A stretch of 60,553 nt of DNA from Thermodesulfobacteriota bacterium (GCA_030145085.1 JAQYWG010000001.1:1-60553), one strand, 5' to 3'. Positions 1 through 35,736 are shown, counted from the first letter of the stretch. The notes: generated by a model not told the origin, from the sequence alone. Numbers and translations: made by a program.

Positions 1-154
1 GTCCATGCTGTCACGGTGGCGCTATTGGGGGAGAGGATAAGAATCCATTCCTGGGGGCAAGTATTCCGTTAGGAAGAGCATGTATGGCCTGCGCTGGAGG
101 CCGTAATTCATTTCCCGCTTTTGTGGTTTGTAAGCCGAACCCGGGAACCTTCTT

Positions 155-1108
155 TCACGAAGCGCTCTTTAAGCGCTCAATCCTATTCCTTACATCCAAA
201 AAATCGCTATCAAGGCTGATGACATGATTGTAGGCTTTTAGAGCTTCCTGCATCATGCCGTTGCTCTCATAAGCTAACCCCAGCCGATATTGGAGCCTGA
301 TTACCTCTTCTCTGTTGAGTTTTTTGACATGAGAGGCGTCGTTAAAGTAATGGATGGCTTTCTCGTATTCCTCCTTTTCCATAAAGCACATTCCCAACAT
401 CACCAGGCAATCGAATTTTCTTTCCTTATCCCCCGATGCAGTTTCAAATTCGGCAATGGCATGATCAATTAACTCCATCTCCTTGTAGGCAATGCCCAGG
501 TGATAGTGCACCTCGAAGTCTTTATCCTCCGTTTCCTGAACGATTTCGGAAGGGCCGAGAATGGTCACTTCATCCTTCGGCTCTTCACGGGCGGGAAGGG
601 ACTGCTCTGGATGGGGTTCTTCGGCCATCGGAGGTGGCTCTATGATGGGCCCTTCCTGGGACTGGGTTTGAGCTCGAACCCTATTCTGTTCGATTTTTTC
701 CAGCGCCTCTAAGGCAACGGGATCATCGGGCTGGACTTTAAGGATATTATGATACTGAAGTCGGGCACTGCCGACCAAATTCTCCCTTACATAGAGATTT
801 GCCAACTTATGATAGACATCGACTAAGTGTTGGTCCAGGTACAGTATCTTTTTGTAGATAGCGGTAGCCCTAAAATTGAGGTCGTCATTCTCATATTGTT
901 GGGCGACCTTCATATATTCGTCGATGGCCTTGTCCTTATGTCCATTTTTAAGATAGAGGTCACCCAATTTTAGGCGCAACCGTATATTCTTGGGGTCCTT
1001 ATCAAGGATTTTCCGGTATTCCTTGATGGCCTTTTTGTGCTGCCCCTTCTTTATGTACTTTTGAGCGATATCGAAGAGATGTTCTTTCGGTAAGTTCAAC
1101 TGCATCAA
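155..1108 (-). CDS. TPR-repeat protein, no signal peptide, central Pro/Glu-rich linker
   Basis: 317-aa ORF with repeated TPR-like helices (KAIKEYRKILDKDPKN, KAIDEYMKVAQQY, EKAIHYFNDASHV, EALKAYNHVISLDSDF). Divergent from the GTPase operon. Confidence 0.8.
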   Translation of the reverse strand: MMQLNLPKEHLFDIAQKYIKKGQHKKAIKEYRKILDKDPKNIRLRLKLGDLYLKNGHKDKAIDEYMKVAQQYENDDLNFRATAIYKKILYLDQHLVDVYHKLANLYVRENLVGSARLQYHNILKVQPDDPVALEALEKIEQNRVRAQTQSQEGPIIEPPPMAEEPHPEQSLPAREEPKDEVTILGPSEIVQETEDKDFEVHYHLGIAYKEMELIDHAIAEFETASGDKERKFDCLVMLGMCFMEKEEYEKAIHYFNDASHVKKLNREEVIRLQYRLGLAYESNGMMQEALKAYNHVISLDSDFLDVRNRIERLKSAS

Positions 1109-1197
1109 CCAAAAGAGGGCTTTTTTATTACAAACAATTAATTACATAAAGGCTGGATAAAAGTCAAGGTGGAAAAAAGACAAAGGTCGCTAAAGAG

Positions 1198-1269
1198 GTG
1201 GATTATTTTCGAACTTTCCGTCCCACCCAGAATGAACAATTTTTGTCCGCATGGTCGAAAATAGTCCAC
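1198..1269. promoter_or_regulatory. Imperfect inverted repeat with 17-nt arms, candidate operator or enhancer-binding site
   Basis: GTGGATTATTTTCGAAC (1198-1214) pairs with GGTCGAAAATAGTCCAC (1253-1269), 14 of 17 positions complementary by eye. It lies about 320-380 bp upstream of the sigma-54 promoter. Confidence 0.3.
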
Positions 1270-1578
1270 ATAATAAAAATTATTCCTTAAACTGTAAACA
1301 GATGTAAGGAATATATTAATGTTGATTATTAGAACTTACATATAATTTCCTGTTATTTTAGACTAATCTGCCAATTATGTTTACCTGACTTTGGGCGTAG
1401 ACGAATGAATGGCCTGAAATAGCTCACTAAAGGGAGGAGGAAACTGTGGTTAAAAATCGACCATTTCGTTTAGTATGTGGACCTTTTTTGATAACCCCAT
1501 TATTTACTTATTTTCTCATTGTGAGAAAAAATCAATAATATTAATAAGTTAAATTACTTTTCCTGAAAAGACAATAAT

Positions 1579-1594
1579 TGGCATTCATTTTGCT
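1579..1594 (+). promoter_or_regulatory. Sigma-54 (-24/-12) promoter TGGCAT-N5-TTGCT
   Basis: aaTTGGCATtcattTTGCTTa with GG and GC 12 nt apart. It sits 30 nt upstream of ATG 1624, and a GAGG ribosome-binding site lies between them. Confidence 0.65.
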
Positions 1595-1623
1595 TACACA
1601 TTCTAATCGCGAGGTTACTATTG

Positions 1624-2088
1624 ATGAAAGAAAAGCTCATGGAGATCAATTCCCTGAAGGGAGTCTGGGGGTATTTTCTCTGTGATAATATGGGGAAGAT
1701 ATTGGCGAGGCAAATGCCTATCGTCTTTATGAAACATCTGGCAATGATGGGAAAGGAGGTAACCCAGGTCATTGGCCTACTGGAGAACTTGAGCAGCAGT
1801 ACGGGGAACCTGGAATTTCTCTTTGAAGATGGAGGAGTGATGGTCAGGAGCGTGAAAAACTTTACCTTGGTGGTGTTTTGCGATCCAAACGTGGACATCT
1901 CCATGCTGAGGTCGAAGATGAATGTGATAATCTCTGAGATACAGGGGAATTCGAAAATGCAGGAACTGGTTCAAAAGGGAGAGTGGAGGAGAAGAAGGTT
2001 ACTCCAAAAGGAATATTTAAATCAGGAATACAGGGAGATCCTCGACCAATTGGTGCCCGAAGATATAAGCTCGTCTACCCCGAGTTAG
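1624..2088 (+). CDS. Roadblock/LC7 (MglB-like) domain protein with charged C-terminal tail
   Basis: ORF track 1621-2088, with ATG at 1624. The alternating beta/alpha pattern (GVWGYFLCDNMGKILA ... LEFLFEDGGVMVRSVKNFTLVVFCD) is typical of Roadblock folds. Assigned from motif pattern and operon context only. Confidence 0.55.
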   Translation: MKEKLMEINSLKGVWGYFLCDNMGKILARQMPIVFMKHLAMMGKEVTQVIGLLENLSSSTGNLEFLFEDGGVMVRSVKNFTLVVFCDPNVDISMLRSKMNVIISEIQGNSKMQELVQKGEWRRRRLLQKEYLNQEYREILDQLVPEDISSSTPS

Positions 2089-2108
2089 AAGGATAAGGAG
2101 TCAGGATC

Positions 2109-2996
2109 ATGGCGGAAACGAGAAGGAGGGGAATCAGCCTGTTGACCAAATTGACCATCGGGATCTTGATCCCCCTCGTCATATCATTTGGTGTGATTGG
2201 ATTTATTTACATCAGGCAGACCGAGGAGATTAAATCCATAGCAACAGAGGAAGGCGCCCGGACCCTCAATGATTTGGGGGAGAAGATGATAAGACAGAAG
2301 GCCCTGGACATAGCCAAACAGATCGAGATATTCATCAAATCTCACCCAGATTTCAGCAAGGGGGAATTCTATAATTCGCCAGCTCTCAAGGCCATAGCCG
2401 TACAAAAAGTGGGAGTGGGTAAAACTGGATATACATCCGTCCACGACAACAAGGGCATTAGCCGTTTCAACAAAAACCCGAAGGTCGTCGGAAGGGATCT
2501 CCTTTTGTTAGCCGAAAAACTCCCTGAATTCCGGTCGATCATAGAGACCAGTTTGAAGGGAAGGGCCCGCGGTTACTATGACTGGAAGGACACCGACGGC
2601 GTGCGGAGGCGCAAGTTCAGGTTTTGCGCTCCCATCGAGGGAACCGATCTCGTGGTCGCGGCCACCACCTCTATCGATGAATTCTCCAAGCCGGCCAAAC
2701 AGATCGAACATCGAATAATCAACAAAGTCGAAAGGACACGGATTCACTTCCTGATTGTAATGGGCGTATCCCTTATCGTTGTCATCCTGGTTACCTCCAT
2801 CTATTCGAGAACTGTTGTTAACCCCATTACATACCTGACCGACGTAGCCGACCGAATCAGCCTGGGGGACTTGGACACCAGGATCGAGATAAATTCCAGC
2901 GATGAGGTTGGCATGCTTGCCGATTCTCTCGAGAGAATGCAGGAAAGCTTAAAGGCGGCTATAGAACGACTGAGGAAAAAGCATTCTTCCGAATGA
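2109..2996 (+). CDS. Membrane sensor: TM, Cache-like periplasmic domain, TM, HAMP; no output domain
   Basis: Two hydrophobic helices (LLTKLTIGILIPLVISFGVIGFIYI and IHFLIVMGVSLIVVILVTSIY). A periplasmic segment of about 180 aa lies between them. HAMP motif: PITYLTDVADRISLGDLDTRIEINSSDEVGMLADSLERM. The ORF stops about 20 aa after the HAMP. Confidence 0.7.
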   Translation: MAETRRRGISLLTKLTIGILIPLVISFGVIGFIYIRQTEEIKSIATEEGARTLNDLGEKMIRQKALDIAKQIEIFIKSHPDFSKGEFYNSPALKAIAVQKVGVGKTGYTSVHDNKGISRFNKNPKVVGRDLLLLAEKLPEFRSIIETSLKGRARGYYDWKDTDGVRRRKFRFCAPIEGTDLVVAATTSIDEFSKPAKQIEHRIINKVERTRIHFLIVMGVSLIVVILVTSIYSRTVVNPITYLTDVADRISLGDLDTRIEINSSDEVGMLADSLERMQESLKAAIERLRKKHSSE

Positions 2997-3027
2997 GTTT
3001 GGCCTGACGGCAAATGGGAAGGAGAAA

Positions 3028-4182
3028 ATGACAAGGGAGTTGAAGAAGGTACTCATAGTGGACGATGAGGAAACTCTCACGTGGAGTATGGCAAAAAGCC
3101 TCTCAAGGGACAGGGATAAATACGGAGTGGAGATCGCAAACAACGGGAGAGAGGCCCTCGATGTTCTGAGTAAAATGCCCATTGACCTGGTTATTTCGGA
3201 CATTCGAATGCCGGATATCAATGGTTTGGATCTGTTGGTTCGCGTTAAGAGGGATTTTCCAAAGACGAAAGTGATCATCATGACGGCCTATGGGTCTTCG
3301 GATGTACAAAGGGAGGCGAGCAAAAGGGGATCCCTCCATTACATCGAAAAACCTTTTGAAATCAATGAAATCAGAAAATTGATTTTGGATCTCATCAAGG
3401 AAAAGAGGGGATTCGAAGGGAAGCTCTTCGACCTCCAATTGACCGATATCGTTCAAATGAATTGTCTCGGCCGGGTAACGACCATGCTGGTCATTACGAA
3501 AGACACTCATAGGGGGGTGATCTACTTTAATGACGGGGAGATCGTCCATGCCGAATGCGATGATATAGCGGGTGAAAAAGCCTTTTACACCATCCTTGAA
3601 TGGCAGGAGGGGAAATTTGTATCCAATATCGGAATCGTTCCACCTCGTGAGACGATTTCCTCGACCTGGGAACACTTGCTGGTGGAGGGAATGAAGAGGA
3701 AAGACGAGGGAGGGCCGTTAAGTTCGGAAATTGAAAAGGCGGAAAAGCCAAGGAGAAAAGAGGCTCCGGCAAACCAAGTGGACAGGGCGTTTGACCATTT
3801 GGAAGGGGGAGGGGAGAAGGGAAAACGGCAGAAAGCGGACCTATTCCATCGAATGTGCAAGTTGATCATGAAGATCCCGGAATGCGAAGGGATCATAGTC
3901 GCATCCAAAACCGGGAAGGTAGAAGCCTTCGAATCCATGGCCGAGATAGAAGAGGAAGGAGTACTGGCTGCCTTCCTCGGGTTATTTGGGGACAGGGTAG
4001 GAAACCTTTTTAGAATGGGTAAGCTTAACCGAATACTCTATGGAGATGTTCCACAGGGGAAGATGATCTTCAAACACGGGTCCAACTATTACGGAGTCGC
4101 ATTGAAAAGAGAGGCTCATTTCAACCGCTTCCTCGATTCATTGAAAAAGACGCTGGATAGTATCGCACAGGGGAAAGGATAA
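3028..4182 (+). CDS. Response regulator: REC + PATAN (DUF4388) + C-terminal Roadblock-like domain
   Basis: REC with DDE and the phospho-acceptor context LVISDIRMPDINGLD. PATAN signature: LFDLQLTDIVQMNCLGRVTTMLVI...GVIYFNDGEIVHAE...GEKAFYTILEWQEGKF. The C-terminal 110 aa (GIIVASKTGKVEAFES...) look Roadblock-like. Confidence 0.75.
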   Translation: MTRELKKVLIVDDEETLTWSMAKSLSRDRDKYGVEIANNGREALDVLSKMPIDLVISDIRMPDINGLDLLVRVKRDFPKTKVIIMTAYGSSDVQREASKRGSLHYIEKPFEINEIRKLILDLIKEKRGFEGKLFDLQLTDIVQMNCLGRVTTMLVITKDTHRGVIYFNDGEIVHAECDDIAGEKAFYTILEWQEGKFVSNIGIVPPRETISSTWEHLLVEGMKRKDEGGPLSSEIEKAEKPRRKEAPANQVDRAFDHLEGGGEKGKRQKADLFHRMCKLIMKIPECEGIIVASKTGKVEAFESMAEIEEEGVLAAFLGLFGDRVGNLFRMGKLNRILYGDVPQGKMIFKHGSNYYGVALKREAHFNRFLDSLKKTLDSIAQGKG

Positions 4183-4187
4183 GGAAT

Positions 4188-5225
4188 ATGATTTTCCCAA
4201 AAGGGGAAGTAATGCACAAGAATTTGAGCACCTCTTATACGAACCTCAATGGTTTGCTCCTTTCACTGAAAGGGGAGGATTTCAGTGGATATGTTAAAAT
4301 CGGCTTCATGGATTATGAAGCCATGCTCTTTATGGATTCGGGGGATATTATCAATGCCATCGAGCAGATGGGAGACAAGAAGAGAGTCGGCCAAAGGGCC
4401 ATCACCAATATCATATCCAAAGCAAAAGAGCAGGATGGCGTGATTAGCGTATATCAACTTTCACCTGAAATGGTCACAGTTTTGGCGAGCACACTGAAAA
4501 GGGAAATCCTCTATAGGGATCTTTCCACGGATTTCACAAGCCTGCAACGATTAATAGATAGGTTAGGCGAGCAAAAACATACGGGGTATATCGAAATCGC
4601 CTTGAGAAATGGCAAGGGGAGTGGAGTGATCTTCTTTCAAGAGGGGGAGCCCATCGAAACGATCCTTACCGCGAAGGATGGAGATCTTGTTTCGGGGAGG
4701 AATCTTCTCAGTCGGATCTTGGAGGAGGCTCAGGGAGCCGGAGTGGTTTTCCATGTGTACCGAGCTGATCTCCCCACACCTTCGGATCACATGGTAGAGA
4801 TCAATGAAGGGGGGAACCTCCAAGACTTGCTCAGGGTACTTCAAGATACAATCTCCAGTATAGAGACCGTTGTGGATGGATTGATCAAGAAGGGAATCTT
4901 CGGTTCCGAGTTGAGAAGGGTACTGGTTAAGAAGTCCAATGAGTACCCTTTTTTGGATCCCTTCGCCGCAGAGTTCAGATATGAAGACGGAAAAATCGTC
5001 TTCACGGGAAATACGGTTATCCGTGACTTGACAAGGGGATTGGGGGAATGTTTGGGACTAACGATAGAAGCTCTTTCAAATAAGTTTTCGAAAAAAAAGA
5101 TATTGGATCACGTGAAAGGGGAACTGGATCAGATTAAGGTCGACTTCAGAACAGAAATAAAAAAATTCAACCTTGAAATAGCTATGCCCGAGATTTTCGG
5201 GAGACACTTTATCAAGAAAAGATGA
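4188..5225 (+). CDS. Protein with two tandem PATAN/DUF4388-like repeats plus an unassigned C-terminal domain
   Basis: Internal duplication: FSGYVKIGFMDYEAMLFMDSGDIINA... and HTGYIEIALRNGKGSGVIFFQEGEPIET.... The ATG at 4212 has the better Shine-Dalgarno (aaGGGGAag) and may be the true start. Confidence 0.5.
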   Translation: MIFPKGEVMHKNLSTSYTNLNGLLLSLKGEDFSGYVKIGFMDYEAMLFMDSGDIINAIEQMGDKKRVGQRAITNIISKAKEQDGVISVYQLSPEMVTVLASTLKREILYRDLSTDFTSLQRLIDRLGEQKHTGYIEIALRNGKGSGVIFFQEGEPIETILTAKDGDLVSGRNLLSRILEEAQGAGVVFHVYRADLPTPSDHMVEINEGGNLQDLLRVLQDTISSIETVVDGLIKKGIFGSELRRVLVKKSNEYPFLDPFAAEFRYEDGKIVFTGNTVIRDLTRGLGECLGLTIEALSNKFSKKKILDHVKGELDQIKVDFRTEIKKFNLEIAMPEIFGRHFIKKR

Positions 5226-5644
5226 ATATTATTCTCTCCGGCAAGGATATAGTCAGGATCGATGGGTGTCTGAACAAGCTGGTAACGAGTTCAGCAGCAC
5301 ATTGCGTATTCTTGATCGATAGGTCTGGGCAATTAATCGCACACAGTGGCAATCCCTCAACGGTGGATGTTGCGGCGCTTTCGGCCCTAACGGCAGCCAA
5401 CTTCGGGGCAACGGCGGAAATTGCAAAGCTCCTTGGTGAAGATGAGTTCAACCTCCTTTTTCACAAGGGAAATAAGGAAAATATCTATTTTTCGGGGGTG
5501 GGCGAACACCTCATCGTGGTAACTATCTTCGATAATAAGACCTCCCTTGGATTGGTGAGATTAAGGGTAAACAAAGTCACCGACGAACTTTTGGAAATCT
5601 TTTCCGCGATTTTCGAGAGATCCAAATACATGAACTCCGGGTGA
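5222..5644 (+). CDS. mglB: MglB-like Roadblock/LC7 protein (candidate MglA GAP)
   Basis: 140 aa, ATGA-coupled to the upstream gene and directly upstream of mglA. Roadblock pattern: HCVFLIDRSGQLIAHSGN...AALSALTAANFGATAEIAKLLGE...HLIVVTIFD. Confidence 0.75.
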   Translation: MNIILSGKDIVRIDGCLNKLVTSSAAHCVFLIDRSGQLIAHSGNPSTVDVAALSALTAANFGATAEIAKLLGEDEFNLLFHKGNKENIYFSGVGEHLIVVTIFDNKTSLGLVRLRVNKVTDELLEIFSAIFERSKYMNSG

Positions 5645-5650
5645 TCTAGT

Positions 5651-6274
5651 ATGCCGTTTATCAATTTCAGTAAAGATGAAATTCAATGCAAGATCATCTA
5701 TTATGGGGCGGGCTTTTGTGGTAAGACCACCAACTTGCAATACATTTACAGCAAGACTACTGGAAAAACCAAGGGGAAAATGGTTTCCATCGACACGAAA
5801 GGGGGAGATCGAACTATCTTCTTCGACTTTCTCTCGCTCAATCTGGGCAAGATTAGGGGCTTCGACATCAGGGTACAGCTCTATACGGTCCCGGGACAAG
5901 TTCACTACGATGCCACCAGAAAACTGGTATTAAAGGGGGTGGATGGGGTAGTATTCGTCGCTGATTCCCTCAAGGTGCAGCGAAAGAAAAATATCGAGAG
6001 CTTGATCAACTTGGCCAAGAATTTGGCCGAAAAGAGGCTGAGCATTCGAACTGTTCCTTTGGTCATGCAGTATAATAAGCGGGATTTAGGCGGAACCGAC
6101 TCCGAGCTTCTTCCCGTGGAGATCCTCGAAAAGGATTTGAATTCGATGCTTAAGGTCCCGGTAATTGAAGCCAGTGCTTTGAAGGGGTTCGGGGTTTTCG
6201 AGACATTGAGGGAAATCAGTAAATTGGTTGTGAAGGAGGTAAGTCGAAAGGTTCTCTCCATGGATCGACTTTAA
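5651..6274 (+). CDS. mglA: MglA-family Ras-like small GTPase
   Basis: N-terminus MPFINFSKDEIQCKIIYYGAGFCGKTTNLQYIY. P-loop GAGFCGKT. MglA-specific switch-2 YTVPGQV. G4 motif QYNKRDL. DRTIFFDFL and LKGVDGVVFVADS closely mirror the Myxococcus MglA sequence as I recall it. Confidence 0.92.
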   Translation: MPFINFSKDEIQCKIIYYGAGFCGKTTNLQYIYSKTTGKTKGKMVSIDTKGGDRTIFFDFLSLNLGKIRGFDIRVQLYTVPGQVHYDATRKLVLKGVDGVVFVADSLKVQRKKNIESLINLAKNLAEKRLSIRTVPLVMQYNKRDLGGTDSELLPVEILEKDLNSMLKVPVIEASALKGFGVFETLREISKLVVKEVSRKVLSMDRL

Positions 6275-6316
6275 GTGGTCCCTGAGAACACTATCTTCGG
6301 ATAGGATTGGGTTTTT

Positions 6317-7729
6317 ATGGAAAAAGACGGTATAGAAGATCTGGATGAAGAGATCGAATCGGCGGTGGATTCCCTCTTCGTGGAAGAAGATACTGATGAA
6401 GGGATTAGGCCGGCAGGAGGAAAAGGGGGCATCCCCATACAGGCAGAACCCATTCCCGACATTTCTCCCGAGGTGATGGAGGAGCCCCTTGAGAGGGAGA
6501 TGCTTCGAGAGACCGCCCCAGAGGCCGAGCCGGTAGGCGAAGAGATCGTAACAGCCCCGGAGGCCGGGCCTGTGGGAGAAGAGATCATAACAACCCCGGA
6601 GGCCGAGTCTGTGGGCGAAGAGATCGTAACAGCCCCGGAGGCCAAGTCCGTAACGGAGGAGATAGCGTCCATTCCGGCGAAAGCCAAACCCGTGGAAAAG
6701 CCTCTGGAAGGGGAAAAGCTGCCCAAGGGTGTCGAAACTTTGGAGGTAGAACTCCTTTCCCTGGAGTGGGAATTCAATAGCGAGATCCTTAAGAAAATTA
6801 TTGCGGCTCTGGGTGGATTGAAAGCCGCTTACAGGGATAATGATTCCCTTTTGGAGATTATCAATATGATGGGCAAGGTTTCTCTCTATCTGCTCAATGA
6901 TGAAAAGAGCATTACACCGGAGGCCCTGAGGTTCTTGCAGGATGGAAAGGAAGTCATAAAGTTCCTGACCACGGAGAAAGGGGAGCTGCTCATATTCAAG
7001 AACCTCGTGGTTGAAGGTATCAATTCCCACTTTCAACTTTTGGGATTAGATAGGGGGGCAAGAAAGGACGAGGCTCCAGACGAGATATTTCAGAAGCTCT
7101 GTTCGGATTTAGAAAAAGATCGGATGAGGCTATTCGAGGGGGAAAACTGTTTAGGCAGGGCTCTTCACCAATTTAAGAATATGAAGGATGAACTCCTATT
7201 CGATGACGGAATGAGTGGCTTATCGGACGAATTGGAAAGAATCCAGGGTTCCCTAAGGAGTTGCTTCGGGGGTTTGGGCGACATTTCGGAGCAGTTTCAG
7301 CGGAAAATATTCGGGCAACGGTTATACGGAGTACAGAGGTTTTTGCTCGTTGAGACACAAAATCGGATATTTGGCATTCCAAGCGACTCGGTAATGAAAT
7401 CCTATACGCTTGCGGATGACTACGCTGAGAACATTGTCTCCCAGGATTCCATTACGCTTAAGGGAAAAAGAATTCCCTTGGTTAAACTATCCAGGGTATT
7501 CAACCTCGCCATGACGAGGGTGAAGAGGTCCCAGGGGATAGTTCTGGCAGGAGAGAGGAACCAAATAATAGCCATATTGGTGGATAGGGTATTGAGGAAT
7601 AGAAGCCTGTTCGTAAAGACCGCAGAGCAGGAGAGAAAGGGGTTAAAATATATAACGGCCATTTCGCATCTGAAAAGTGGCAAAATGGTTTATATCCTGA
7701 ACATTGACCGATTAAAGGCCCGCGCTTAG
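6317..7729 (+). CDS. Acidic tandem-repeat protein with C-terminal CheW-like domain
   Basis: The C-terminal 140 aa (FLLVETQNRIFGIPSDSVMKSY...LKGKRIPLVKLSRVFNL...GIVLAGERNQIIAILVDRVL...GKMVYILNIDRL) follow the CheW fold pattern. The N-terminus is highly acidic. Confidence 0.7.
   Translation: MEKDGIEDLDEEIESAVDSLFVEEDTDEGIRPAGGKGGIPIQAEPIPDISPEVMEEPLEREMLRETAPEAEPVGEEIVTAPEAGPVGEEIITTPEAESVGEEIVTAPEAKSVTEEIASIPAKAKPVEKPLEGEKLPKGVETLEVELLSLEWEFNSEILKKIIAALGGLKAAYRDNDSLLEIINMMGKVSLYLLNDEKSITPEALRFLQDGKEVIKFLTTEKGELLIFKNLVVEGINSHFQLLGLDRGARKDEAPDEIFQKLCSDLEKDRMRLFEGENCLGRALHQFKNMKDELLFDDGMSGLSDELERIQGSLRSCFGGLGDISEQFQRKIFGQRLYGVQRFLLVETQNRIFGIPSDSVMKSYTLADDYAENIVSQDSITLKGKRIPLVKLSRVFNLAMTRVKRSQGIVLAGERNQIIAILVDRVLRNRSLFVKTAEQERKGLKYITAISHLKSGKMVYILNIDRLKARA
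6515..6670 (+). repeat. Four in-frame tandem copies of a 39-bp (13-aa) unit, APEAEPVGEEIVT-like
   Basis: APEAEPVGEEIVT / APEAGPVGEEIIT / TPEAESVGEEIVT / APEAKSVTEEIAS, read directly from the translation and the DNA. Confidence 0.9.
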
Positions 7730-7745
7730 ACCTGATTGTTAATCG

Positions 7746-8939
7746 GTGAAGTCCATGGGAAGTGATTGGATAGTTATGGCAACACGACAATCTACAGAAT
7801 CATGGAAGGGCAAGGTTAATCAGGGCGATGGATTAAAGGCCAGGGAGCGGGATGTGCAGAGGCAACACAAAGAGGTGCAGCAGCTCAGGACTTTTACCGA
7901 AAGCCTCATCCAAAGCATTAGCAGCGGTCTCATTCTCGTGAATACGAAGGAACAGATCACCTATTTCAATCGGGCGGCGGAGAAAATCCTGGGGTATTCA
8001 AGGAAAGATGTTGTTGGAAAACCCTTTACGATTTTTTCCCTGAAGGAGAAGAAGCAGACTATGTCCACTCCCTTTAAGAATCACGATGAAATGGATTCCA
8101 GAAGGGAGGGCGTTATCTTAAGAAAGGACAAGGTTGAGATTCCCATTGGGTTTAACATTACCGATCACTTGGATTCGCGCGGGGAGAGAATCGGTAAGAT
8201 CATCAGTTTCAGGGACATGACCAATGTCCTAAAACTCCAGGAGGAAATTCTCCGCATGGATCGATTGGTATCCTTAGGTGAGCTCTCCTCGGGAATCGCC
8301 CACGAAATTCGAAATCCCTTGGCGGGGATAAAAACGACGGCTCAAGCCCTGGGTGAGGAGATGGGACAAGATGACCCCAAGAGGGAATATCTCAATCGGA
8401 TCACCAAGGAAATTGATCGGCTGAACGAGCTGCTGAAGACCTTCTTCTCCTTCGCCAAGCCTCAGAAATTGAGCCTGGTGGTCTGTAATATCAGGGACAT
8501 CGTGAATGAAATCATTCCACTTCTCATTAAGAATATCGCCAATAGGGGCATCAATTTTACGGAGGAGTACGCCCGCAACCTACCAAAGGTCAGGGTGGAC
8601 TTTAATCAGATGCACCAAGTATTTTTGAACCTTTTCCTGAACGCGATCCAGGCGATGCCAAATGGTGGGGAGTTGAAAATTAAAGCAGAGGCCATCGCGG
8701 TGGCCCCATTAGTTAATCCCGGTAAGGATTACGTTCGAATATCGATTTCCGACACGGGGAAGGGAATCCCGGCCCATGGTATCAACAAGATTTTCGATCC
8801 ATTCTTCACCACCCGATCAAAGGGAATCGGTTTAGGGCTCTCCATCACGTATCAAATCGTCAAGAAGCATGGAGGGAACATACGGGTTGAAAGTAAAGTA
8901 GATAAGGGAGCAACCTTCATTATTACACTGCCGAAATAG
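7746..8939 (+). CDS. Soluble PAS sensor histidine kinase (NtrB/PilS-like, no TM segment)
   Basis: PAS (ITYFNRAAEKILGYSRKDVVGKPF). HisKA H-box SGIAHEIRNPLAGI. HATPase N, G1 and G2 boxes (NLFLNAIQAM, DTGKGI, GIGLGLSI). GTG at 7746; ATG alternatives at 7755 and 7776. Confidence 0.88.
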   Translation: MKSMGSDWIVMATRQSTESWKGKVNQGDGLKARERDVQRQHKEVQQLRTFTESLIQSISSGLILVNTKEQITYFNRAAEKILGYSRKDVVGKPFTIFSLKEKKQTMSTPFKNHDEMDSRREGVILRKDKVEIPIGFNITDHLDSRGERIGKIISFRDMTNVLKLQEEILRMDRLVSLGELSSGIAHEIRNPLAGIKTTAQALGEEMGQDDPKREYLNRITKEIDRLNELLKTFFSFAKPQKLSLVVCNIRDIVNEIIPLLIKNIANRGINFTEEYARNLPKVRVDFNQMHQVFLNLFLNAIQAMPNGGELKIKAEAIAVAPLVNPGKDYVRISISDTGKGIPAHGINKIFDPFFTTRSKGIGLGLSITYQIVKKHGGNIRVESKVDKGATFIITLPK

Positions 8940-8956
8940 CCTGATTAGGGGAGAAT

Positions 8957-10321
8957 ATGAAACCGGCCGTATTAGTCGTGGATGACGATGAGGTTATGCG
9001 ACAAACGCTCTCCGATGTCCTCAAGAAGAAGGGGTATGCGATCTCTACCGCGGAGACAGGCAGACAGACGATATCTTCTGTTAAGGAACATTTTTTTGAC
9101 TTGATTTTGTTAGATATCCGACTCCCCGATATGGATGGACTCGATGTTCTAAAGAGCATAAAAGAGATTGAAAGCGACCTTATGGTTATCGTAATGACCG
9201 CTTATTCCGATGTCCAGACAGCAGTCATGGCGATGAAGTCAGGGGCTTATGATTACATCGATAAGCCTTTTGAGCTGGAGGAGCTGAAAATCCTTATCCA
9301 AAAGGCCCTGGAGACGCAGAACCTAAAAAATGAAATCCGCCAGTTACGGCGACAGGGAAAGGAGAAACATGAGGGCATCGAAATTTTTGGTAATAGCCCT
9401 CTTATAAAGAATGTGATGGAGTTGATCGAGATGATCAGCCAAACCCCGAAGACGTCCGTTTTGATTCAAGGGGAGAGCGGCACGGGAAAGGAATTGGCCG
9501 CGAATGCCATTCATTACCGGAGTAAGAGAGTCAATAAACCGCTGATGAAGATCAATTGCAGCGCAATCCCGGAAAATTTGCTGGAGACCGAACTTTTCGG
9601 CTATGAAAAGGGGGCCTTCACCGATGCCAAGGGAACGAAGAAAGGCCTTTTTGAACTGGCCAATGGGGGAACGGTCTTCCTGGACGAAATCGCTGAGATG
9701 AAATCCTACCTCCAAACAAAGCTTCTAAGGATTCTGGAGAACCAAAGATTCATGAGGGTAGGGGGGGAAAGGGAAATCGTTGTCGATGTCCGAATTATAG
9801 CCGCCACCAACAAAGATTTATCAGCCTTGGTCAACGGGGGACAGTTTAGAAAGGACCTGTATTATCGCCTAAAGGTTATGGTTATTGAAATGCCGCCCCT
9901 GAGGGAGAGAGTGGAAGACATCCTGTCTTTGGGGAACCTCTTTATCGAGGAAAATAATAAGGAATTGGGAAAGAACGTAACGGGAATATCGGAGGCGGCA
10001 AGCGAATATTTGCTCAATTATCAGTGGCCTGGAAACGTAAGGGAATTGAAGAATATTATCGAGCGGGCTATGATCTTATCCAATGGCAAGGAAATACTAC
10101 CCGACCATTTCCCCATTGAGTTGAGGAAGGGGCAAATGGAGGGGCTCGAAGATCGGACTTCGGGTACCGAGGATCTCGCCCTGGAGACCGTGGAAAAAAA
10201 GCATATCATGGATGTTCTGATGATGATGGATGGGAATAAATCGAAGGCTGCGAGGATGCTGGGAATCTCTCGATCCACCTTAAGGGAGAAGCTGAAGAAA
10301 TATTCTATTGCTGCGGCTTAG
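8957..10321 (+). CDS. Sigma-54-dependent response regulator (NtrC/PilR family)
   Basis: REC (LILLDIRLPDMDGL). AAA+ Walker A GESGTGKE. GAFTGA-type loop GYEKGAFTDA. C-terminal Fis-type HTH (NKSKAARMLGISRSTLREKLKKY). Confidence 0.92.
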   Translation: MKPAVLVVDDDEVMRQTLSDVLKKKGYAISTAETGRQTISSVKEHFFDLILLDIRLPDMDGLDVLKSIKEIESDLMVIVMTAYSDVQTAVMAMKSGAYDYIDKPFELEELKILIQKALETQNLKNEIRQLRRQGKEKHEGIEIFGNSPLIKNVMELIEMISQTPKTSVLIQGESGTGKELAANAIHYRSKRVNKPLMKINCSAIPENLLETELFGYEKGAFTDAKGTKKGLFELANGGTVFLDEIAEMKSYLQTKLLRILENQRFMRVGGEREIVVDVRIIAATNKDLSALVNGGQFRKDLYYRLKVMVIEMPPLRERVEDILSLGNLFIEENNKELGKNVTGISEAASEYLLNYQWPGNVRELKNIIERAMILSNGKEILPDHFPIELRKGQMEGLEDRTSGTEDLALETVEKKHIMDVLMMMDGNKSKAARMLGISRSTLREKLKKYSIAAA

Positions 10322-10430
10322 TACTTCGACTCGCAAATCGAGTTATCTATTTCGCTCGTATTGAGCTCGCTGAAATAGTTGTGACATACTCCCTTCGGGG
10401 ATTGAGCACAAGCGGGAAAGGAGTAAACCC

Positions 10431-11489
10431 ATGCTATTTTCGAAGAAGGGCAACGTGGTCGGCTTAGATATCGGCTCCAGTTCCATCAAGTTGGTAGAAC
10501 TGGCAGAGATGAAGGGGGGCTATCAGTTGAGAAACTTCGGAATTGCTCCTTTACCCCCCGAGGGCATCGTCGATGGAGCTCTCATGGATTCGGTAACCAT
10601 CGTTGATTCGATCAAAGGGTTGGCCAGCGCTTTGAGGATAAAGAGCAAGGATGTGGTGATTTCAGTATCGGGTCATTCCGTAATCGTCAAGAAGATCAAC
10701 ATCCCTGAGATGACGGAGGATCAACTCGAGGAATCTATCCAATGGGAAGCTGAACGATATATTCCCTTTGACATCAATGACGTAAACATCGACTTTCAAA
10801 TTCTTGGTTCCACTGAGGGAAACGAGGAGTTGATGGACGTCATATTGGTGGCGGCAAAAAAGGACATCATCAATGATTATCTGTCCGTGATCCACGAGGC
10901 ACGCTTCAATCCCGTTATCGTTGATATTGATTCTTTTGCCCTCGAAAATATGTTCGAGGCAAATTACCCCGTAGCCCAGGACGAGGTTATTGCCCTCGCC
11001 AATATGGGGGCGAGTGTAACGAATATCAATATTTTGAAAAGAGGAATCTCTTCCTTCACCAGAGACATATTTACCGGTGGAAACGCCATTACCGAGGAGA
11101 TCCAAAGGCAACTTAATGTGGACTTTGATGAAGCCGAATCCCTGAAATTGGGCAATCGCATGGATGAAGCAAGTCAAAAGGTCGTACGAGAGGTCCTGGA
11201 CTCTGCCTTAAATTCCCTGGCTACCGAGGTTGCCAAGTCGTTGGACTTCTTCCGCTCCACGAGCGCTCAAGAAAAAGTCGATAAACTCTTTTTGAGCGGA
11301 GGCTGCGCAAAGATAAATGGTATTGAAAACGTCGTCGAACAACAGGCTGGCATCCCGGTCGAGATCGCCAATCCCTTCAAGGAGATCGATTGTTCCAAGA
11401 GGGATTTGGACGTTGACTATCTCAAGGAAATGGAGCCAATTATGGCCGTCAGTGTCGGCCTGGCTTTAAGGAGGGTAGGAGACAAATGA
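10431..11489 (+). CDS. pilM: Type IV pilus assembly protein PilM (actin-like ATPase fold)
   Basis: VGLDIGSSSIKLVEL...QLRNFGIAPLP...IQWEAERYIPFDINDVNIDFQIL; 352 aa; ATGA-coupled to pilN. Confidence 0.93.
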   Translation: MLFSKKGNVVGLDIGSSSIKLVELAEMKGGYQLRNFGIAPLPPEGIVDGALMDSVTIVDSIKGLASALRIKSKDVVISVSGHSVIVKKINIPEMTEDQLEESIQWEAERYIPFDINDVNIDFQILGSTEGNEELMDVILVAAKKDIINDYLSVIHEARFNPVIVDIDSFALENMFEANYPVAQDEVIALANMGASVTNINILKRGISSFTRDIFTGGNAITEEIQRQLNVDFDEAESLKLGNRMDEASQKVVREVLDSALNSLATEVAKSLDFFRSTSAQEKVDKLFLSGGCAKINGIENVVEQQAGIPVEIANPFKEIDCSKRDLDVDYLKEMEPIMAVSVGLALRRVGDK

Positions 11490-12031
11490 TTCGCATTAAT
11501 TTGTTGATGGCGAGGGCTGTTAGGAGGAAGGTGGGCCTCCGCAAGGAGATCTCCATTTCCGTCTTCGTTCTGCTTTTGGTCTTTTTCATCATCGGACTCT
11601 TGCAATGGATATACTGGAACCAATCGGCCGCGCTGGAGAGGCAGATCAAAGACAAAAAGGTGGAATTAGAGAAGCTGCTGGCTTTGAAACAACAGATCGG
11701 GAAGTATAAGGCGAACATAAAGCTTCTTGAGAAGAAATTAGAGATCATCAACGAATTAAAAAAGAATAAAGGGAGGCCGGTCCGGATCCTGGATGAATTG
11801 AGCACGCACATGCCTGATAAGATGTGTCTCCGGACGCTGAAGAAAAAGGGAGCCCAATTGGAACTGGAGGGGTGGGCGCTCTCCGATGAGGTGATCGCCA
11901 ATTTCATGACCAACCTTCAGCGCTCGAAATCTTTCCGCGGTGTCGAATTGATCGTTACCGAACGCTTTAAGCCTGAGGGTACAGACGTAAACATCAAGAA
12001 ATTTACCATCACCACTACCGTTATACAGTGA
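11486..12031 (+). CDS. pilN: Type IV pilus assembly protein PilN
   Basis: MIRINLL N-terminus that binds PilM, one TM segment, a coiled coil, and its position between pilM and pilO. Confidence 0.87.
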   Translation: MIRINLLMARAVRRKVGLRKEISISVFVLLLVFFIIGLLQWIYWNQSAALERQIKDKKVELEKLLALKQQIGKYKANIKLLEKKLEIINELKKNKGRPVRILDELSTHMPDKMCLRTLKKKGAQLELEGWALSDEVIANFMTNLQRSKSFRGVELIVTERFKPEGTDVNIKKFTITTTVIQ

Positions 12032-12729
12032 AGGGGGATGTCATGGCCGTTTCCATGGATTCCATTGCCAAGTTACCTGCATCGAAGAAGCTCCTTATCT
12101 TACTAGCGTCCGTAGTGTTTATCTCAGGTCTCTACACCTATCTCCTCCATCTTCCCCAGCGGGAGAAGCTGGATGGCCTGAAGCGGGAACTGGGCAAATT
12201 AAATAAGGAGTTGAAGGAGAGCCAGGCCGTCGAACGAGAGCTGGCTAAATTTCAGAAAGAGGACGAGGTCCTACAGAGGAAGCTTACCTTGGCCCTGGCC
12301 CAGCTTCCCAACAAGAAGGAGATTCCAAGTCTCCTTCGGAATATCTCAAGCCTGGGGAAGGGGTCGGGACTGGAGTTTCTCCTCTTCAAACCAAAACCCG
12401 AGGAACGCGTCGGAGCAAAACCCGGGACACCCGACAAGCAAAAACCCGGAAAATCCGGCAAACCAAAACCTGAAGAACCCCAGGAATTTTACGCCCGGGT
12501 TCCCTTGGAGTTGACCATGCTGGGGAGTTATCACAACGTGGCCATATTCTTCGATAAGATCAGCAAACTGGACAGAATCATCAACATCCTCAACTTCTCC
12601 ATGGGAGATGTAAAGCAAATGGGAGGCGAGACGGTGGTGAAAACCTCATGCCTGGCCACCACCTTTCGCTTTCTCGAGACCGAGGAGGGGGGCAGTGAAA
12701 AGAAAACGAAAACTAAGGGCGGGAAATAG
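12028..12729 (+). CDS. pilO: Type IV pilus assembly protein PilO, with Lys/Pro-rich insertion
   Basis: TM (LLILLASVVFISGLYTYLL), coiled coil, core (FYARVPLELTMLGSYHNVAIFFDKISKLDRIINI). GTGA overlap with pilN; alternative ATG at 12043. Confidence 0.85.
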   Translation: MKGDVMAVSMDSIAKLPASKKLLILLASVVFISGLYTYLLHLPQREKLDGLKRELGKLNKELKESQAVERELAKFQKEDEVLQRKLTLALAQLPNKKEIPSLLRNISSLGKGSGLEFLLFKPKPEERVGAKPGTPDKQKPGKSGKPKPEEPQEFYARVPLELTMLGSYHNVAIFFDKISKLDRIINILNFSMGDVKQMGGETVVKTSCLATTFRFLETEEGGSEKKTKTKGGK

Positions 12730-13279
12730 GGTGGTTGGAGGGTATTGCCTCAAGGCCCTCTTTGTGGTGGGCATTTCCCTTCTCCTCATCTGGGGCTGTG
12801 AAGGCGGATCGAAACCCGCTAAACCGACCGTCATAAAGAAACAGCGACGCCGTAGGCCATCTTCCCAAAAGAAGGAGGAAAAGGTGACGAATAAGGTTCC
12901 AGACAAAAAGAAGGAGCCTGTCTATACTTATAATCCCGCGGGGAAACGAGACCCCTTTAAACCCTTTATCACCCTGGGGCCCAAGAAGCCTACCGCCACA
13001 GCTCGCCTTACCCCCCTTCAACGATATGATGTGAGCGAGCTGAAGTTGGTGGGAATTTTGAAGGGACCGGCGGGATATCGGGCCTTGGTGGAAGATGCCA
13101 GCGGAAAGGGATTTATTGTCACCAAGGGAACCCTCATTGGCCATGAGAACGGGCGCGTTAAAGAGATCCGCAAGGATCGAGTAATCATCAAACAGACCCA
13201 TAAGGATATATTCGGTCAGATCAAAGAGAAAGAGATTTCCATACGTTTGAGAAAGCCTGAGGAAGGGGGAGTGAGATGA
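12695..13279 (+). CDS. pilP: Type IV pilus lipoprotein PilP
   Basis: Lipobox LLLIWGC. KRDPFKPF motif. Beta-sandwich region SELKLVGILKGPAGYRALVEDASGKGFIVTKGTLIG. GTG start at 12695, or at 12731 just after the pilO stop. Confidence 0.82.
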   Translation: MKRKRKLRAGNRVVGGYCLKALFVVGISLLLIWGCEGGSKPAKPTVIKKQRRRRPSSQKKEEKVTNKVPDKKKEPVYTYNPAGKRDPFKPFITLGPKKPTATARLTPLQRYDVSELKLVGILKGPAGYRALVEDASGKGFIVTKGTLIGHENGRVKEIRKDRVIIKQTHKDIFGQIKEKEISIRLRKPEEGGVR

Positions 13280-15969: not shown

Positions 15970-15984
15970 GCACCTCATAGGGAT

Positions 15985-16002
15985 TTTCCGTTTCAACGGA
16001 AA
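15985..16002 (+). terminator. Short hairpin after pilQ (weak terminator candidate, no U-tract)
   Basis: TTTCCGTT-tc-AACGGAAA lies 16 nt after the pilQ stop. No T-run follows it. Confidence 0.3.
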
Positions 16003-16334
16003 CAATCGCGGCAAAGGGATGGAGGATCTACCCTGACAAATCCTCGTAGTCTCCCTTGTGCGTATTATCCTGGAAAACGGGATAGATCCCAAAATGCGAT
16101 AGCCTTCATCTTTCAAAAAATTTTTCCGTAATCATTCCCTACCTCTTCTGGATATGGTTGATTCCCACCCGGTCGACAATTTCCCAATGAACGCCTGCTG
16201 ACACAATTACAACTTGAGACGTTCCAGCAGGGGCAAAATCCATAAATCCCTATATAATCAATAGATTACAAAAACATTTACCATCAAGGCCGGGAAGCTC
16301 CAGCCACGGCATCATGGCAGATACGTGGGCAATT

Positions 16335-16343
16335 TGCTATAAT
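16335..16343 (+). promoter_or_regulatory. Extended -10 sigma-70-type element TGCTATAAT upstream of aor
   Basis: TGcTATAAT lies about 100 nt upstream of ATG 16441. There is no convincing -35. Confidence 0.35.
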
Positions 16344-16440
16344 TTTTAATCGTGTGAACATCGATGATCGCGATGGAGGGTTTGAAGAACTCGCCCTGCA
16401 ATGATGGCCCGATTAACATGAAGAGAGAAATGAATGGCCT

Positions 16441-19983: not shown

Positions 19984-20927
19984 GGTATCCTTAGACTTCC
20001 CACCAGTTCATTGATATGCTGGAATCCATTCTTCACTAGATAGGCTTCTATGCCATCGATGATCTCGACACAGGCATTGGGGTTGACGAAGTTGGCCGTC
20101 CCCACTTGGACGGCACAGGCCCCAGCAATGATAAACTCCAAGGCATCCTCCGGAGTCATAATGCCGCCTATTCCTATCACGGGGATCTGCACCGCATTCA
20201 CAGCCTCCCACACTAACCTGAGAGCCACGGGTTTTATGGCCGGACCCGAAAGCCCACCGATGATATTGTCCAACAAGGGTCTTCGGGATTGTGGGTCGAC
20301 GGCCATGGCCATAAGGGTGTTGATGAGGGAGATGCCGTCGGCCCCGGCCTCCTCCACGGCTTTGGCTATGAGGGTGATATCCGTGACATTGGGCGAGAGT
20401 TTTACGATGATCGGCCGGTGAGCCGACCGTTTAACCGTCCGGACGACGAGGTGGGCCATTTTCGGATCTGCCCCAAAGAGGACACCTCCCTTCGCCACAT
20501 TTGGACAGGAAATATTCACCTCCAGACCCGCAATTCCGGGGACGTCGTCCAGTCTCTTGGCCAACTCCCGGAACTCTCCGGCAGTTCCCCCAAAGATGCT
20601 GGCTATGACCGGAGTTTTGAATTGTCTCAAAAAGGGTACCTTATCTCTTATGAAGGCTTGAAGGCCAACGTTTTGAAGGCCGATAGAGTTAATCATACCG
20701 CTCGCCGTTTCCACGATGCGGGGCGGGGAATTCCCTTCCATGGGCTTGATGGAGATTCCCTTGGTAATAATACCCCCCAACCGATTGAGATCCACTATAC
20801 GAACAAACTCCTCGCCATACCCGAAAGTTCCCGAGGCCGCCATAACGGGGTTTTTCAATTTGATCCCCGCTATATCAATTGACATGCGAGGACTATGACC
20901 CGGGCTTTTCGGCCCTTCGTACGTCAT
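19980..20927 (-). CDS. pyrD: Dihydroorotate dehydrogenase B, catalytic subunit
   Basis: GIKLKNPVMAASGTFGYGEE, EVNISCPN, GLSGPAIKPVALR, IGIGGI. 4-nt overlap with pyrK. Confidence 0.93.
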   Translation of the reverse strand: MTYEGPKSPGHSPRMSIDIAGIKLKNPVMAASGTFGYGEEFVRIVDLNRLGGIITKGISIKPMEGNSPPRIVETASGMINSIGLQNVGLQAFIRDKVPFLRQFKTPVIASIFGGTAGEFRELAKRLDDVPGIAGLEVNISCPNVAKGGVLFGADPKMAHLVVRTVKRSAHRPIIVKLSPNVTDITLIAKAVEEAGADGISLINTLMAMAVDPQSRRPLLDNIIGGLSGPAIKPVALRLVWEAVNAVQIPVIGIGGIMTPEDALEFIIAGACAVQVGTANFVNPNACVEIIDGIEAYLVKNGFQHINELVGSLRIP

Positions 20928-29802: not shown

Positions 29803-29808
29803 GCAGCT

Positions 29809-31212: not shown

Positions 31213-31246
31213 GGAGGGAAACCCCGAAATGAAGGCATACTGAACA

Positions 31247-32989: not shown

Positions 32990-32998
32990 GGGACCCAG

Positions 32999-35729: not shown

Positions 35730-35736
35730 AGGCGGA

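Follow-up and report, generated by a model that had tools for sequence, protein, structure and literature searches.

A conserved MglA/MglB gene block with an apparent CheA relic, set within a type IVa pilus locus of Thermodesulfobacteriota

A stretch of 60,553 nucleotides from a Thermodesulfobacteriota bacterium (GCA_030145085.1 JAQYWG010000001.1:1-60553; "the window" below means this whole stretch) carries a compact run of genes centred on MglA, a Ras-like GTPase, and MglB, its Roadblock/LC7 partner. The run continues without a change of strand into the genes of a type IVa pilus (T4aP), and it includes a REC-PATAN response regulator and a protein, termed p7 here, that looks like a relic of the chemotaxis kinase CheA. 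For this genome, context was read within the window only, which is one whole contig of a metagenome-assembled genome (MAG). The features of the locus, in order along the sequence, are:

155-1108, minus strand: tetratricopeptide repeat (TPR) protein, 317 amino acids (aa), laid out as TPR, acidic/Pro-rich linker, TPR (Pfam TPR families)
1447-1463, palindrome with no strand: upstream element TGGTTAAAAATCGACCA, consensus TGGTCAA-N3-TTGACCA, seen as invariant columns of the promoter alignment
1579-1594, plus strand: sigma-54-type -24/-12 element TGGCAT-N5-TTGCT (pattern count and conservation)
1624-2088, plus strand: p1, Roadblock/LC7-like protein, 154 aa, accessory (family-profile matches in the Protein Data Bank (PDB), below threshold)
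2109-2996, plus strand: p2, TM-Cache-TM-HAMP sensor (TM, transmembrane segment), 295 aa, accessory (Pfam dCache_2 and HAMP)
3028-4182, plus strand: p3, REC-PATAN-Roadblock response regulator, 384 aa, of which residues 1-228 (REC-PATAN) are core (Pfam Response_reg, DUF4388)
4188-5225, plus strand: p4, two tandem PATAN-like repeats and a C-terminal 140 aa without a domain assignment, 345 aa in all, window clade only
5222-5644, plus strand: MglB, Roadblock/LC7 protein and predicted GTPase-activating protein (GAP), 140 aa, core (Pfam Robl_LC7, PDB MglB)
5651-6274, plus strand: MglA, group-1-type Ras-like GTPase, 207 aa, core (PDB MglA)
6317-7729, plus strand: p7, putative CheA-relic scaffold, 470 aa, core (Pfam CheW, AlphaFold2 (AF2) model)
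7746-8939, plus strand: soluble histidine kinase with PAS, HisKA and HATPase domains, 397 aa, in a PilS2-like position, core (Pfam)
8957-10321, plus strand: REC-AAA+(sigma-54 interaction)-HTH_8 regulator, 454 aa, in a PilR2-like position, core (Pfam REC-Sigma54_activat-HTH_8)
10431-15969, plus strand: pilM, pilN, pilO, pilP and pilQ, the T4aP alignment complex and secretin (open reading frames (ORFs); Pfam on orthologues)

The seven plus-strand ORFs from p1 to p7 occur at exactly the coordinates given in an earlier note on this DNA, with intergenic gaps of 20, 31, 5, -4, 6 and 42 nt. The run-on that it described into a kinase/sigma-54 activator pair and pilMNOPQ is present too, the kinase gene following after 16 nt, the regulator gene after 17 nt and the pil genes after 109 nt. 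Its picture of a co-oriented, sigma-54-driven module, centred on a true MglA/MglB pair and physically tied to pilMNOPQ, was borne out, the promoter being a prediction, and the scan of 43 window ORFs against Pfam agreed with it in recovering no CheA, methyl-accepting chemotaxis protein (MCP), CheB or CheR domain. The domain calls for MglA, MglB, REC-PATAN, Cache-HAMP and the CheW-like protein are solid by Pfam or PDB matches; those for the extra Roadblock proteins and the tandem PATAN protein are weaker. What the note overlooked is the extent of the block, of which the kinase and sigma-54 regulator are themselves a conserved part. The pil genes were identified through their orthologues in two related loci (L002 and L003), which match PilM_2, PilN, PilO, PilP and Secretin. 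Terminator-like hairpins over positions 1-16500 were no commoner than in shuffled sequence, and an Rfam scan of the window gave no matches.

The assignment of the central pair is straightforward. The product of 5651-6274 matches Myxococcus xanthus MglA over residues 1-198 (E 8.4e-66; phmmer against the PDB; 6hjh, 5ymx, 6h17), and the alignment retains the P-loop GxxxxGKT, the intrinsic Arg (DRT), the switch-2 Gln of TVPGQ and the NKxD motif, which place the protein in group 1. The gene at 5222-5644, which overlaps p4 by 4 nt and ends 6 nt before mglA, encodes a protein matching Pfam Robl_LC7 (PF03259) at 2.7e-10 and M. xanthus MglB (6h5b_B) at E 2.4e-32. The NCBIfam MglB equivalog matches at 1e-20 but scores 74.5 bits, well under the model's 200-bit cut-off. 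The protein is assigned as MglB, with a predicted GAP role. A homologue search with MglA returned matches named as MAGs only.

Evidence that these genes form a unit comes from their neighbourhoods elsewhere. The close relatives of p7 have identities of 60% or more; they belong to MAGs of uncultured Syntrophobacterales/Thermodesulfobacteriota, kin of sulfate reducers, and keep the whole gene order. An exhaustive HMMER search with the middle part of p7 reached about 65 further clusters at 24-42% identity. Scanning metagenomes with the p7 family alignment brought up 250 relatives, and the loci of 80 were retrieved. A scan of GTDB genomes returned 6 close species only, because its derived peptide patterns were clade-specific. 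Counting in a tblastn neighbourhood survey only loci with enough flanking sequence, MglA is encoded directly upstream of p7 in 60/60 loci, MglB upstream in 56/56 and REC-PATAN upstream in 44/44; the PAS kinase follows p7 directly in 57/58 loci, and the sigma-54 regulator (50/50) and pilM (38/38) lie downstream. The order is invariant: a TPR gene on the opposite strand, then REC-PATAN, MglB, MglA, the CheW-domain protein, the PAS kinase, the sigma-54 regulator and pilMNOPQ. Both order and adjacency hold even where p7 has fallen to 23-29% identity and pilN to pilQ to 35-50%. In the same surveyed loci MglA remains 83-88% identical to the window protein, REC-PATAN about 68-72% and MglB 61-68%; within the window's own clade, MglA is 93-99% identical. 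Beyond the divergent TPR gene lies PilY1 in 15 of 22 loci, with minor pilin genes there too in one locus. The earlier note had set conservation of the neighbourhood as a test of its proposal, and the order was kept in about 60 metagenome loci. No MCP or CheA gene occurs within 8-10 kb on either side in any of about 60 loci; with MCPsignal and CheA absent from the 43 window ORFs and from the flanks of the related loci, the block does not qualify as a chemosensory (Che/Tfp-type) system.

One locus required separate consideration. At about 9765-12635 of CP070774.1 ("Syntrophobacterales bacterium bin204 chromosome"; L001/L009), a truncated version stands among unrelated genes. By tblastn, the CheW-domain and kinase genes are accompanied there only by the final 50 codons of mglA on one side and 22 initial codons of the sigma-54 regulator gene on the other. 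This has the look of a decayed remnant, or of a join made in assembly, in a MAG that is labelled as a chromosome. The idea drawn from it, that p7 belongs to the kinase and not to MglA, was dropped, since the truncated flanking mglA and regulator genes mark it as a fragment.

Three versions of the block can be distinguished. Type A, the commonest, has a 229-aa REC-PATAN protein and no Cache-HAMP sensor. In type B (L028, L032 and L035) there are in addition p1, a 263-aa PATAN protein, the Cache-HAMP sensor and a Roadblock extension on REC-PATAN. The window clade, type C, keeps p1, Cache-HAMP and the Roadblock extension and adds p4. As p1, Cache-HAMP and the Roadblock extension of p3 are found together in types B and C only, the sensor goes with the Roadblock parts rather than with p7 and is an addition specific to certain clades.

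The promoter region is conserved along with the genes. The -24/-12 element TGGCATTCATTTTGCT at 1579-1594 is followed just downstream by a GAGG ribosome-binding site and, 29 nt downstream, by the ATG. The pattern TGGCAY-N5-TTGCW has 2 matches in the 60.5-kb window, against 0.08 expected. An equivalent element stands 5' of the first module gene in 36 of 42 loci, with a TGGTAY variant in 4 more, and it persists even where the identity of the CheW-domain protein is down to about 24%. At 37 of the 42 -24/-12 sites the palindrome is found upstream of the -24 element, mostly 92-95 nt away in type A loci and 114-115 nt away in the window clade, a difference of about two helical turns. The spacing is fixed and helically phased. 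The palindrome is a unique copy in the window and is absent from the other -24/-12 match, at 40442, which precedes pilin genes and follows a different sigma-54 activator gene. A -24/-12 element, an upstream site and a gene for an enhancer-binding protein (8957-10321) together constitute a predicted sigma-54 promoter with its enhancer. Enhancer sites of NtrC-family activators are typically laid out in this way, which makes the palindrome a candidate binding site, and the co-encoded sigma-54 regulator is the obvious candidate, by inference, to bind it.

The C-terminal domain of p7 matches Pfam CheW (PF01584) at residues 342-466 (1.4e-13; 51.1 bits, cut-off 23.5), as does that of 45 of the 47 distant family members scanned. 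A first AF2 run with 14 sequences, all at least 60% identical, gave a pLDDT of 37 and was unusable; the run was redone with 66 diverse sequences and reached a mean pLDDT of 72.9. The resulting model consists of an N-terminal helix from residue 4 to 20-22, a disordered acidic/Pro-rich linker (23-131), a five-helix bundle (137-241; pLDDT >90), a helical hairpin (255-332) and a P5/CheW-like domain (337-470). For this C-terminal domain the Foldseek matches are CheA P5 and CheW (E 4e-10 to 3e-5), with a TM-score of 0.82 to the P5 entry 4jpb_A, and sequence searches rank CheA P5 above CheW. The bundle is best matched in fold by CheA P1 (1i5n_B; probability 0.94, E 0.22), and, independently, the Thermotoga maritima CheA P1 entries 2ld6_A and 1tqg_A are among the top five profile matches in the PDB (E 0.31 and 0.45), with some 90 residues aligned in register. 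In a hidden Markov model alignment to P1 sequences, the invariant LLSLEWE of the p7 family falls on P1 helix A and the L-[KR] of HTLKG is retained. The position aligned to the phosphorylated His45 of CheA is variable in the family and Gly in the window, and no conserved His exists anywhere in the bundle in the family alignment.

No Pfam match to HATPase_c or Hpt was found in p7, and the model contains only bundle, hairpin and P5-like domain, which sets p7 apart from the CheA kinases. Lacking the P4 kinase domain, P2 and the phospho-accepting His, p7 is therefore neither a kinase nor a phosphotransfer protein. The description of p7 as a CheW-like protein, given in the earlier note, is better replaced by that of a kinase-less, His-less CheA relic, which is what a P1-like bundle, hairpin and P5-like domain without a kinase look like. 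Conservation is uneven along the protein, the mean top-residue frequency being 0.79 in the N-terminal helix, 0.61 in the bundle, 0.52 in the CheW domain and 0.22 in the linker. The best-conserved segment is thus the N-terminal helix, with the consensus LKGLEEEIDSAVDRLFVEK. It bears a likeness to the N-terminal EIDALL motif of FliM. It also resembles the C-terminal CheY-binding peptide of CheZ, QVDDLLDSLGF (checked in 1kmi_Z). The CheW-like domain diverges fast, and mainly Gly and hydrophobic positions are highly conserved in it (e.g., G353, L391 and L461). The acidic repeat of the linker is a 39-bp tandem unit in 3.3 copies (86% matches; 6515-6643) that encodes PEAExVGEEIVTA units; repeat copy number and linker length differ among relatives, and the linker therefore evolves by repeat expansion and contraction. 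Longer proteins that carry the p7 bundle (P0109, P0050, P0091, P0096 and P0081) were inspected for domain fusions, none of which was informative; P0081 and P0096 gave nothing but scattered, domain-less Pfam matches, and these matches look spurious.

The response regulator p3 matches Response_reg (1.3e-25) and DUF4388/PATAN (PF14332; 1.4e-19, 70.7 bits, cut-off 25), which makes it a PATAN protein, and its receiver retains all phospho-acceptor and switch residues as invariant positions (D12, D13, D58, T86, Y105 and K108). The receiver is 39% identical to that of the co-encoded sigma-54 regulator. As the sole kinase in the conserved block, the PAS kinase is therefore the likeliest phosphodonor for this canonical receiver. 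A candidate MglA effector is the divergently encoded TPR protein, which keeps 38-48% identity in distant loci; its translation has no signal peptide and no lipobox, which indicates a cytoplasmic protein.

The accessory genes are less firmly assigned. The sensor p2 matches dCache_2 (9.6e-7) and HAMP (9.7e-16, residues 232-282 of 295), with nothing beyond the HAMP domain, and hydrophobic segments can be read from the translation at residues 11-35 and 212-233. Its orthologues are 46-50% identical in L028, L032 and L035 and absent from type A loci. For p1 there is no Pfam match and no PDB sequence match, but a nine-sequence family profile against the PDB returned 18 sub-threshold matches, 16 of them to Roadblock, LC7 or LAMTOR2 proteins (E 0.047-0.9) and in register over the full domain length. 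The p1 orthologues in L032 and L035 are 44% identical. After its Roadblock-like domain, p1 ends in a strongly conserved basic segment (1990-2088; KGEWRRRRLLQKEYL) that is invariant within the window clade and basic in type B loci too, and that may be a membrane- or partner-binding helix. The C-terminus of p3 has no Pfam Roadblock match in the window; a profile of its last 130 residues has two Roadblock entries as its top PDB matches, both sub-threshold (E 0.043 and 0.098), and the 53% identical orthologue in L035 matches Robl_LC7 above the Pfam cut-off (8.5e-7, 29.1 bits). Alignments of p1 and of the p3 C-terminus to MglB with hhalign, from shallow alignments, were not significant (E 0.14-0.15), and p1 and the p3 C-terminus matched each other over 38 columns only (E 0.011).

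Kinship of p4 to PATAN is no more than suggestive. By hhalign its internal tandem duplication is genuine (probability 94.7%, E 5.6e-8), and the p3 PATAN profile aligns with its second repeat at E 3.7e-4; the DUF4388 match of the whole protein is borderline (1.2e-5; 25.7 bits, cut-off 25), and with these two values the PATAN call is therefore weak. Searched permissively against Pfam, pieces of p1, of p4, of the p3 C-terminus and of the middle of p7 gave a 17-bit DUF4388 match at p4 repeat 2 and nothing else informative. The additional 263-aa protein, which is absent from the window, carries PATAN at its N-terminus and is encoded between the Roadblock-like and Cache-HAMP genes (4992-5783 in L002/L003; 3682-4473 in L035); a precomputed annotation also lists DUF8082 for it. 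The L002 copy was considered as a counterpart of p4 and rejected, the two being unrelated.

Taken together, the block may be a T4aP polarity and regulation module, placed between the pilY1/minor-pilin genes and pilMNOPQ, under sigma-54/two-component control and equipped with a FimL-like scaffold, a reading that we regard as evenly poised between right and wrong. Beyond the anatomy, conservation and promoter architecture, all of which are directly observed, we infer the following steps. The kinase would phosphorylate the sigma-54 regulator, which would then bind the palindrome and drive the operon in positive autoregulation, and the same kinase probably also phosphorylates the REC-PATAN receiver. 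The PATAN domain would act on the pilus motor proteins PilB/PilC, as with the cyanobacterial PatA-type regulators, and MglA-GTP, with MglB as GAP, would set the active pole as in Myxococcus, with the TPR protein as a candidate effector. In this scheme p7 would be a non-catalytic, CheA-derived scaffold analogous to Pseudomonas FimL. The receiver protein would be held by its N-terminal peptide, by its His-less P1-like bundle or by both, and p7 would be anchored through the hairpin and the P5-like domain. The window lineage would have an added input layer, in which p1 and the Roadblock domain fused to p3 could form an MglB-like pair that works with the Cache-HAMP sensor and couples an external ligand to the MglA cycle, in conservon-like fashion. 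A HAMP sensor, Roadblock proteins and an MglA-family GTPase encoded together recall the actinobacterial conservon, and the GTPase is therefore likely the signalling output.

Several points weigh against the polarity-module reading. All carriers are uncultured MAGs, and the window does not encode the PilB, PilT and PilC that belong to this pilus system. As the loci were retrieved by a p7 motif, the survey shows that p7 always occurs with MglA and not the reverse. The P1 assignment of the p7 bundle is consistent but sub-threshold (E 0.2-0.5), the likeness of the p7 peptide to CheZ and FliM is a lead from short-motif similarity that could be due to chance, and the locus encodes neither of the canonical partners of a P5 domain, an MCP tip and CheW. 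The two receivers show no obvious likeness in their alpha-1 specificity regions, and their shared use of one kinase therefore remains a proposal. Likewise, the p1 Roadblock assignment is the weaker for drawing on sub-threshold matches.

Other explanations have to be set against these same observations. The earlier note placed the Cache-HAMP sensor above a CheW-like adaptor and a receiver that in turn act on MglA, i.e., a chemosensory-style input layer in which the GTPase replaces CheA. Part of that interpretation stands, namely that a real sigma-54 MglA/MglB module contains a CheW-domain protein, and two observations speak for the wiring as well: in the window and its clade a single sigma-54 operon encodes MglA together with the sensor, the receiver and the CheW-domain protein, and the 43 window ORFs scanned include no CheA or MCP. 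Yet the CheW-domain protein adjoins MglA in every one of the 60 loci, and most of these are type A, with no Cache-HAMP gene at all; where the sensor does occur, it co-varies with the Roadblock parts. The CheW-like domain is moderately conserved (0.52), against 0.79 for the N-terminal helix. A HAMP-only protein, moreover, has no receptor signalling tip, which is the part that CheW and P5 domains bind. The wiring from sensor through CheW adaptor and receiver to MglA is accordingly unsupported, and we consider it a decidedly poor prospect. A bolder possibility is that in the window lineage the ligand-binding Cache-HAMP receptor, which has no enzymatic output, directly controls the Ras-like GTPase through a p1/p3-Roadblock heterodimer, with p7 tethering the phosphorylated receiver to the complex. 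This is unlikely, though if true, the Cache-HAMP/Roadblock/MglA route would be a bacterial "receptor to G-protein" pathway joined to two-component phosphorylation and steering type IV pilus polarity.

A further alternative is that p7 serves as a coupling protein whose P5/CheW-like domain joins a Frz- or Pil-Chp-like MCP-CheA array encoded elsewhere and links REC-PATAN and MglA/MglB to it. Such domains are known to form array rings with one another and with receptor tips (PDB 8c5v, 6s1k, 3ur1 and 4jpb), the Frz array controls MglA/MglB in Myxococcus, cyanobacterial PATAN-REC regulators sit in Che-like systems, and the genome is visible over only 60 kb. That the flanks of about 60 otherwise tightly clustered loci hold no MCP or CheA gene, and that the domain diverges quickly and keeps mainly its Gly and hydrophobic positions, makes this role for p7 improbable. 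A last explanation is that mglBA, the two-component system and the pil genes are independent neighbours by descent, with p7 a decaying CheA fragment that has no role. The synteny of the window clade, where MglA is nearly identical throughout, could indeed be plain inheritance, and p7 evolves much faster than its neighbours. Against this, order and adjacency persist in every locus at the lowest p7 and PilN to PilQ identities, a single conserved sigma-54 promoter with its upstream site precedes the block, and the p7 ORF is intact in about 250 metagenome relatives with invariant residues in the N-terminal helix and bundle. Descent alone is very hard to credit on this record.

The window contains further loci related to pili. 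At 26233-34234 lies a second pilus or type II secretion-like cluster, with genes for AAA_22, PilM_2, two ORFs without a Pfam match, a 467-aa secretin, a T2SSE ATPase with MshEN, and a T2SSF platform protein. MshEN is the cyclic di-GMP-binding N-terminal domain of MshE. A regulatory island beside pilin genes follows at 34209-44597, with these features:

34209-35729, minus strand: HAMP-PAS histidine kinase
35737-37284, minus strand: REC-GAF-HD protein
37241-38731, minus strand: HAMP-PAS histidine kinase
38779-40269: second sigma-54 activator
40442-40457: second TGGCAT-N5-TTGCT site, directly before the N_methyl pilin genes
40514-40975 and 41056-41565: N_methyl pilin genes
41579-42148 and 42174-44597 (807 aa): two ORFs without a Pfam match, after the pilin genes

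Directly after pilQ in the window, at 16441-18177, lies a gene for a tungsten-type aldehyde:ferredoxin oxidoreductase (AFOR_N/AFOR_C). The corresponding gene in L002 is at 20055-21377 on the opposite strand.

It is mainly for Myxococcus that the signal input to MglA/MglB has been worked out well, and there the genes of its partners (Frz, RomR/RomX and SgmX) are scattered over the genome. The system described here is like those of M. xanthus (MglA/MglB with RomR-RomX, MglC, SgmX and FrzS) and Thermus thermophilus in the order mglB-mglA, the catalytic residues and the link to type IV pili. It differs from them in that the pair is embedded in a T4aP locus behind a predicted sigma-54 promoter and flanked by REC-PATAN and the apparent CheA relic, and RomR and RomX are not encoded among the conserved-block genes. 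The MglB of the window also lacks the C-terminal extension of its Myxococcus counterpart, the alignment stopping at residue 137 of 160. By position in the cluster, the kinase and regulator resemble the M. xanthus PilS2/PilR2 pair, which lies directly upstream of pilM; the pair here differs in being predicted to be co-transcribed with mglBA. In M. xanthus, pilR2S2 is located within the T4aP cluster (PMC6060248) and is, as here, a pair of kinase and NtrC-type regulator.

The earlier note mentioned a link of PATAN to Roadblock/LC7 proteins by gene context; it overlooked that PATAN-MglB-MglA neighbourhoods had already been published. Two surveys, Makarova et al. 2006 and Wuichet and Sogaard-Andersen 2014 (PMC4316618), describe PATAN genes directly upstream of mglB-mglA, and Sfum_0316 of Syntrophobacter fumaroxidans is tabulated as PATAN>MglB>MglA in the supplement of the latter. 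In these surveys a CheW-domain gene has 0 occurrences, and linkage to the kinase, the sigma-54 regulator and pilMNOPQ is not mentioned. In Synechocystis, PATAN is an output domain that binds PilB1 and PilC (bioRxiv 10.1101/2021.06.11.447907). The cyanobacterial PatA-type regulators (PixG, PixE and TaxP, of Tax/Pil-Chp-like systems) share with the block a protein with PATAN and REC, a CheW-domain protein and type IV pili, but the domain order here is reversed (REC-PATAN), the locus has no MCP or CheA, the likely kinase is of the PAS-HisKA type, and MglA/MglB are present.

For p7, the closest comparisons are FimL and CheA. FimL, which is homologous to the N-terminal part of ChpA, binds PilG as well as FimV, a polar hub (PMC10519157). 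FimL of Pseudomonas and Acinetobacter, and p7 in its proposed role, are both non-kinase proteins related to CheA-type kinases and paired with a receiver in pilus polarity. Unlike FimL, p7 has a P5/CheW-like domain, an N-terminal peptide and an acidic linker, and the likeness is one of functional analogy only. With CheA (P1-P2-P3-P4-P5) and CheW, p7 shares the P5/CheW domain in both sequence and fold, and its bundle is weakly P1-like.

The earlier note had matched the arrangement to no characterised pathway, which overlooked the actinobacterial conservon as a precedent for a membrane sensor, Roadblock protein and MglA-like GTPase. The conservon (CvnA HAMP kinase, CvnB Roadblock, CvnC and CvnD, an MglA-like GTPase of group 2) shares the membrane HAMP sensor, Roadblock and GTPase with the window version of the block. 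In contrast to it, the sensor here is of the Cache type and has neither HisKA nor HATPase, there is no CvnC/DUF742, MglA has the group-1 catalytic Arg and Gln, and the target is a pilus. The block is therefore not a conservon, and the resemblance is in logic only.

Full-text literature searches returned no description of this gene block. As far as the searches show, three features appear to be new: the family of p7 proteins with its unvarying link to MglA; the fixed placement of the block, which stands between pilY1 and pilMNOPQ behind a sigma-54 promoter and a conserved enhancer site; and the lineage-specific sensor and Roadblock add-on. Because the claim is a comparative-genomic one, it is on solid ground. 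With the switch, the PATAN regulator, a candidate scaffold, a kinase, an activator and the pilus machine in one block, the locus offers a compact set of candidate interactions. The p7 proteins define an undescribed family, apparently a CheA relic with a P1-like bundle and P5-like domain, and the clade-specific add-on is a natural experiment in grafting external input onto a small GTPase. Finally, the block links two paradigms for steering pili, the myxobacterial MglA GTPase and the PATAN/PilG-type receivers of cyanobacteria and pseudomonads.

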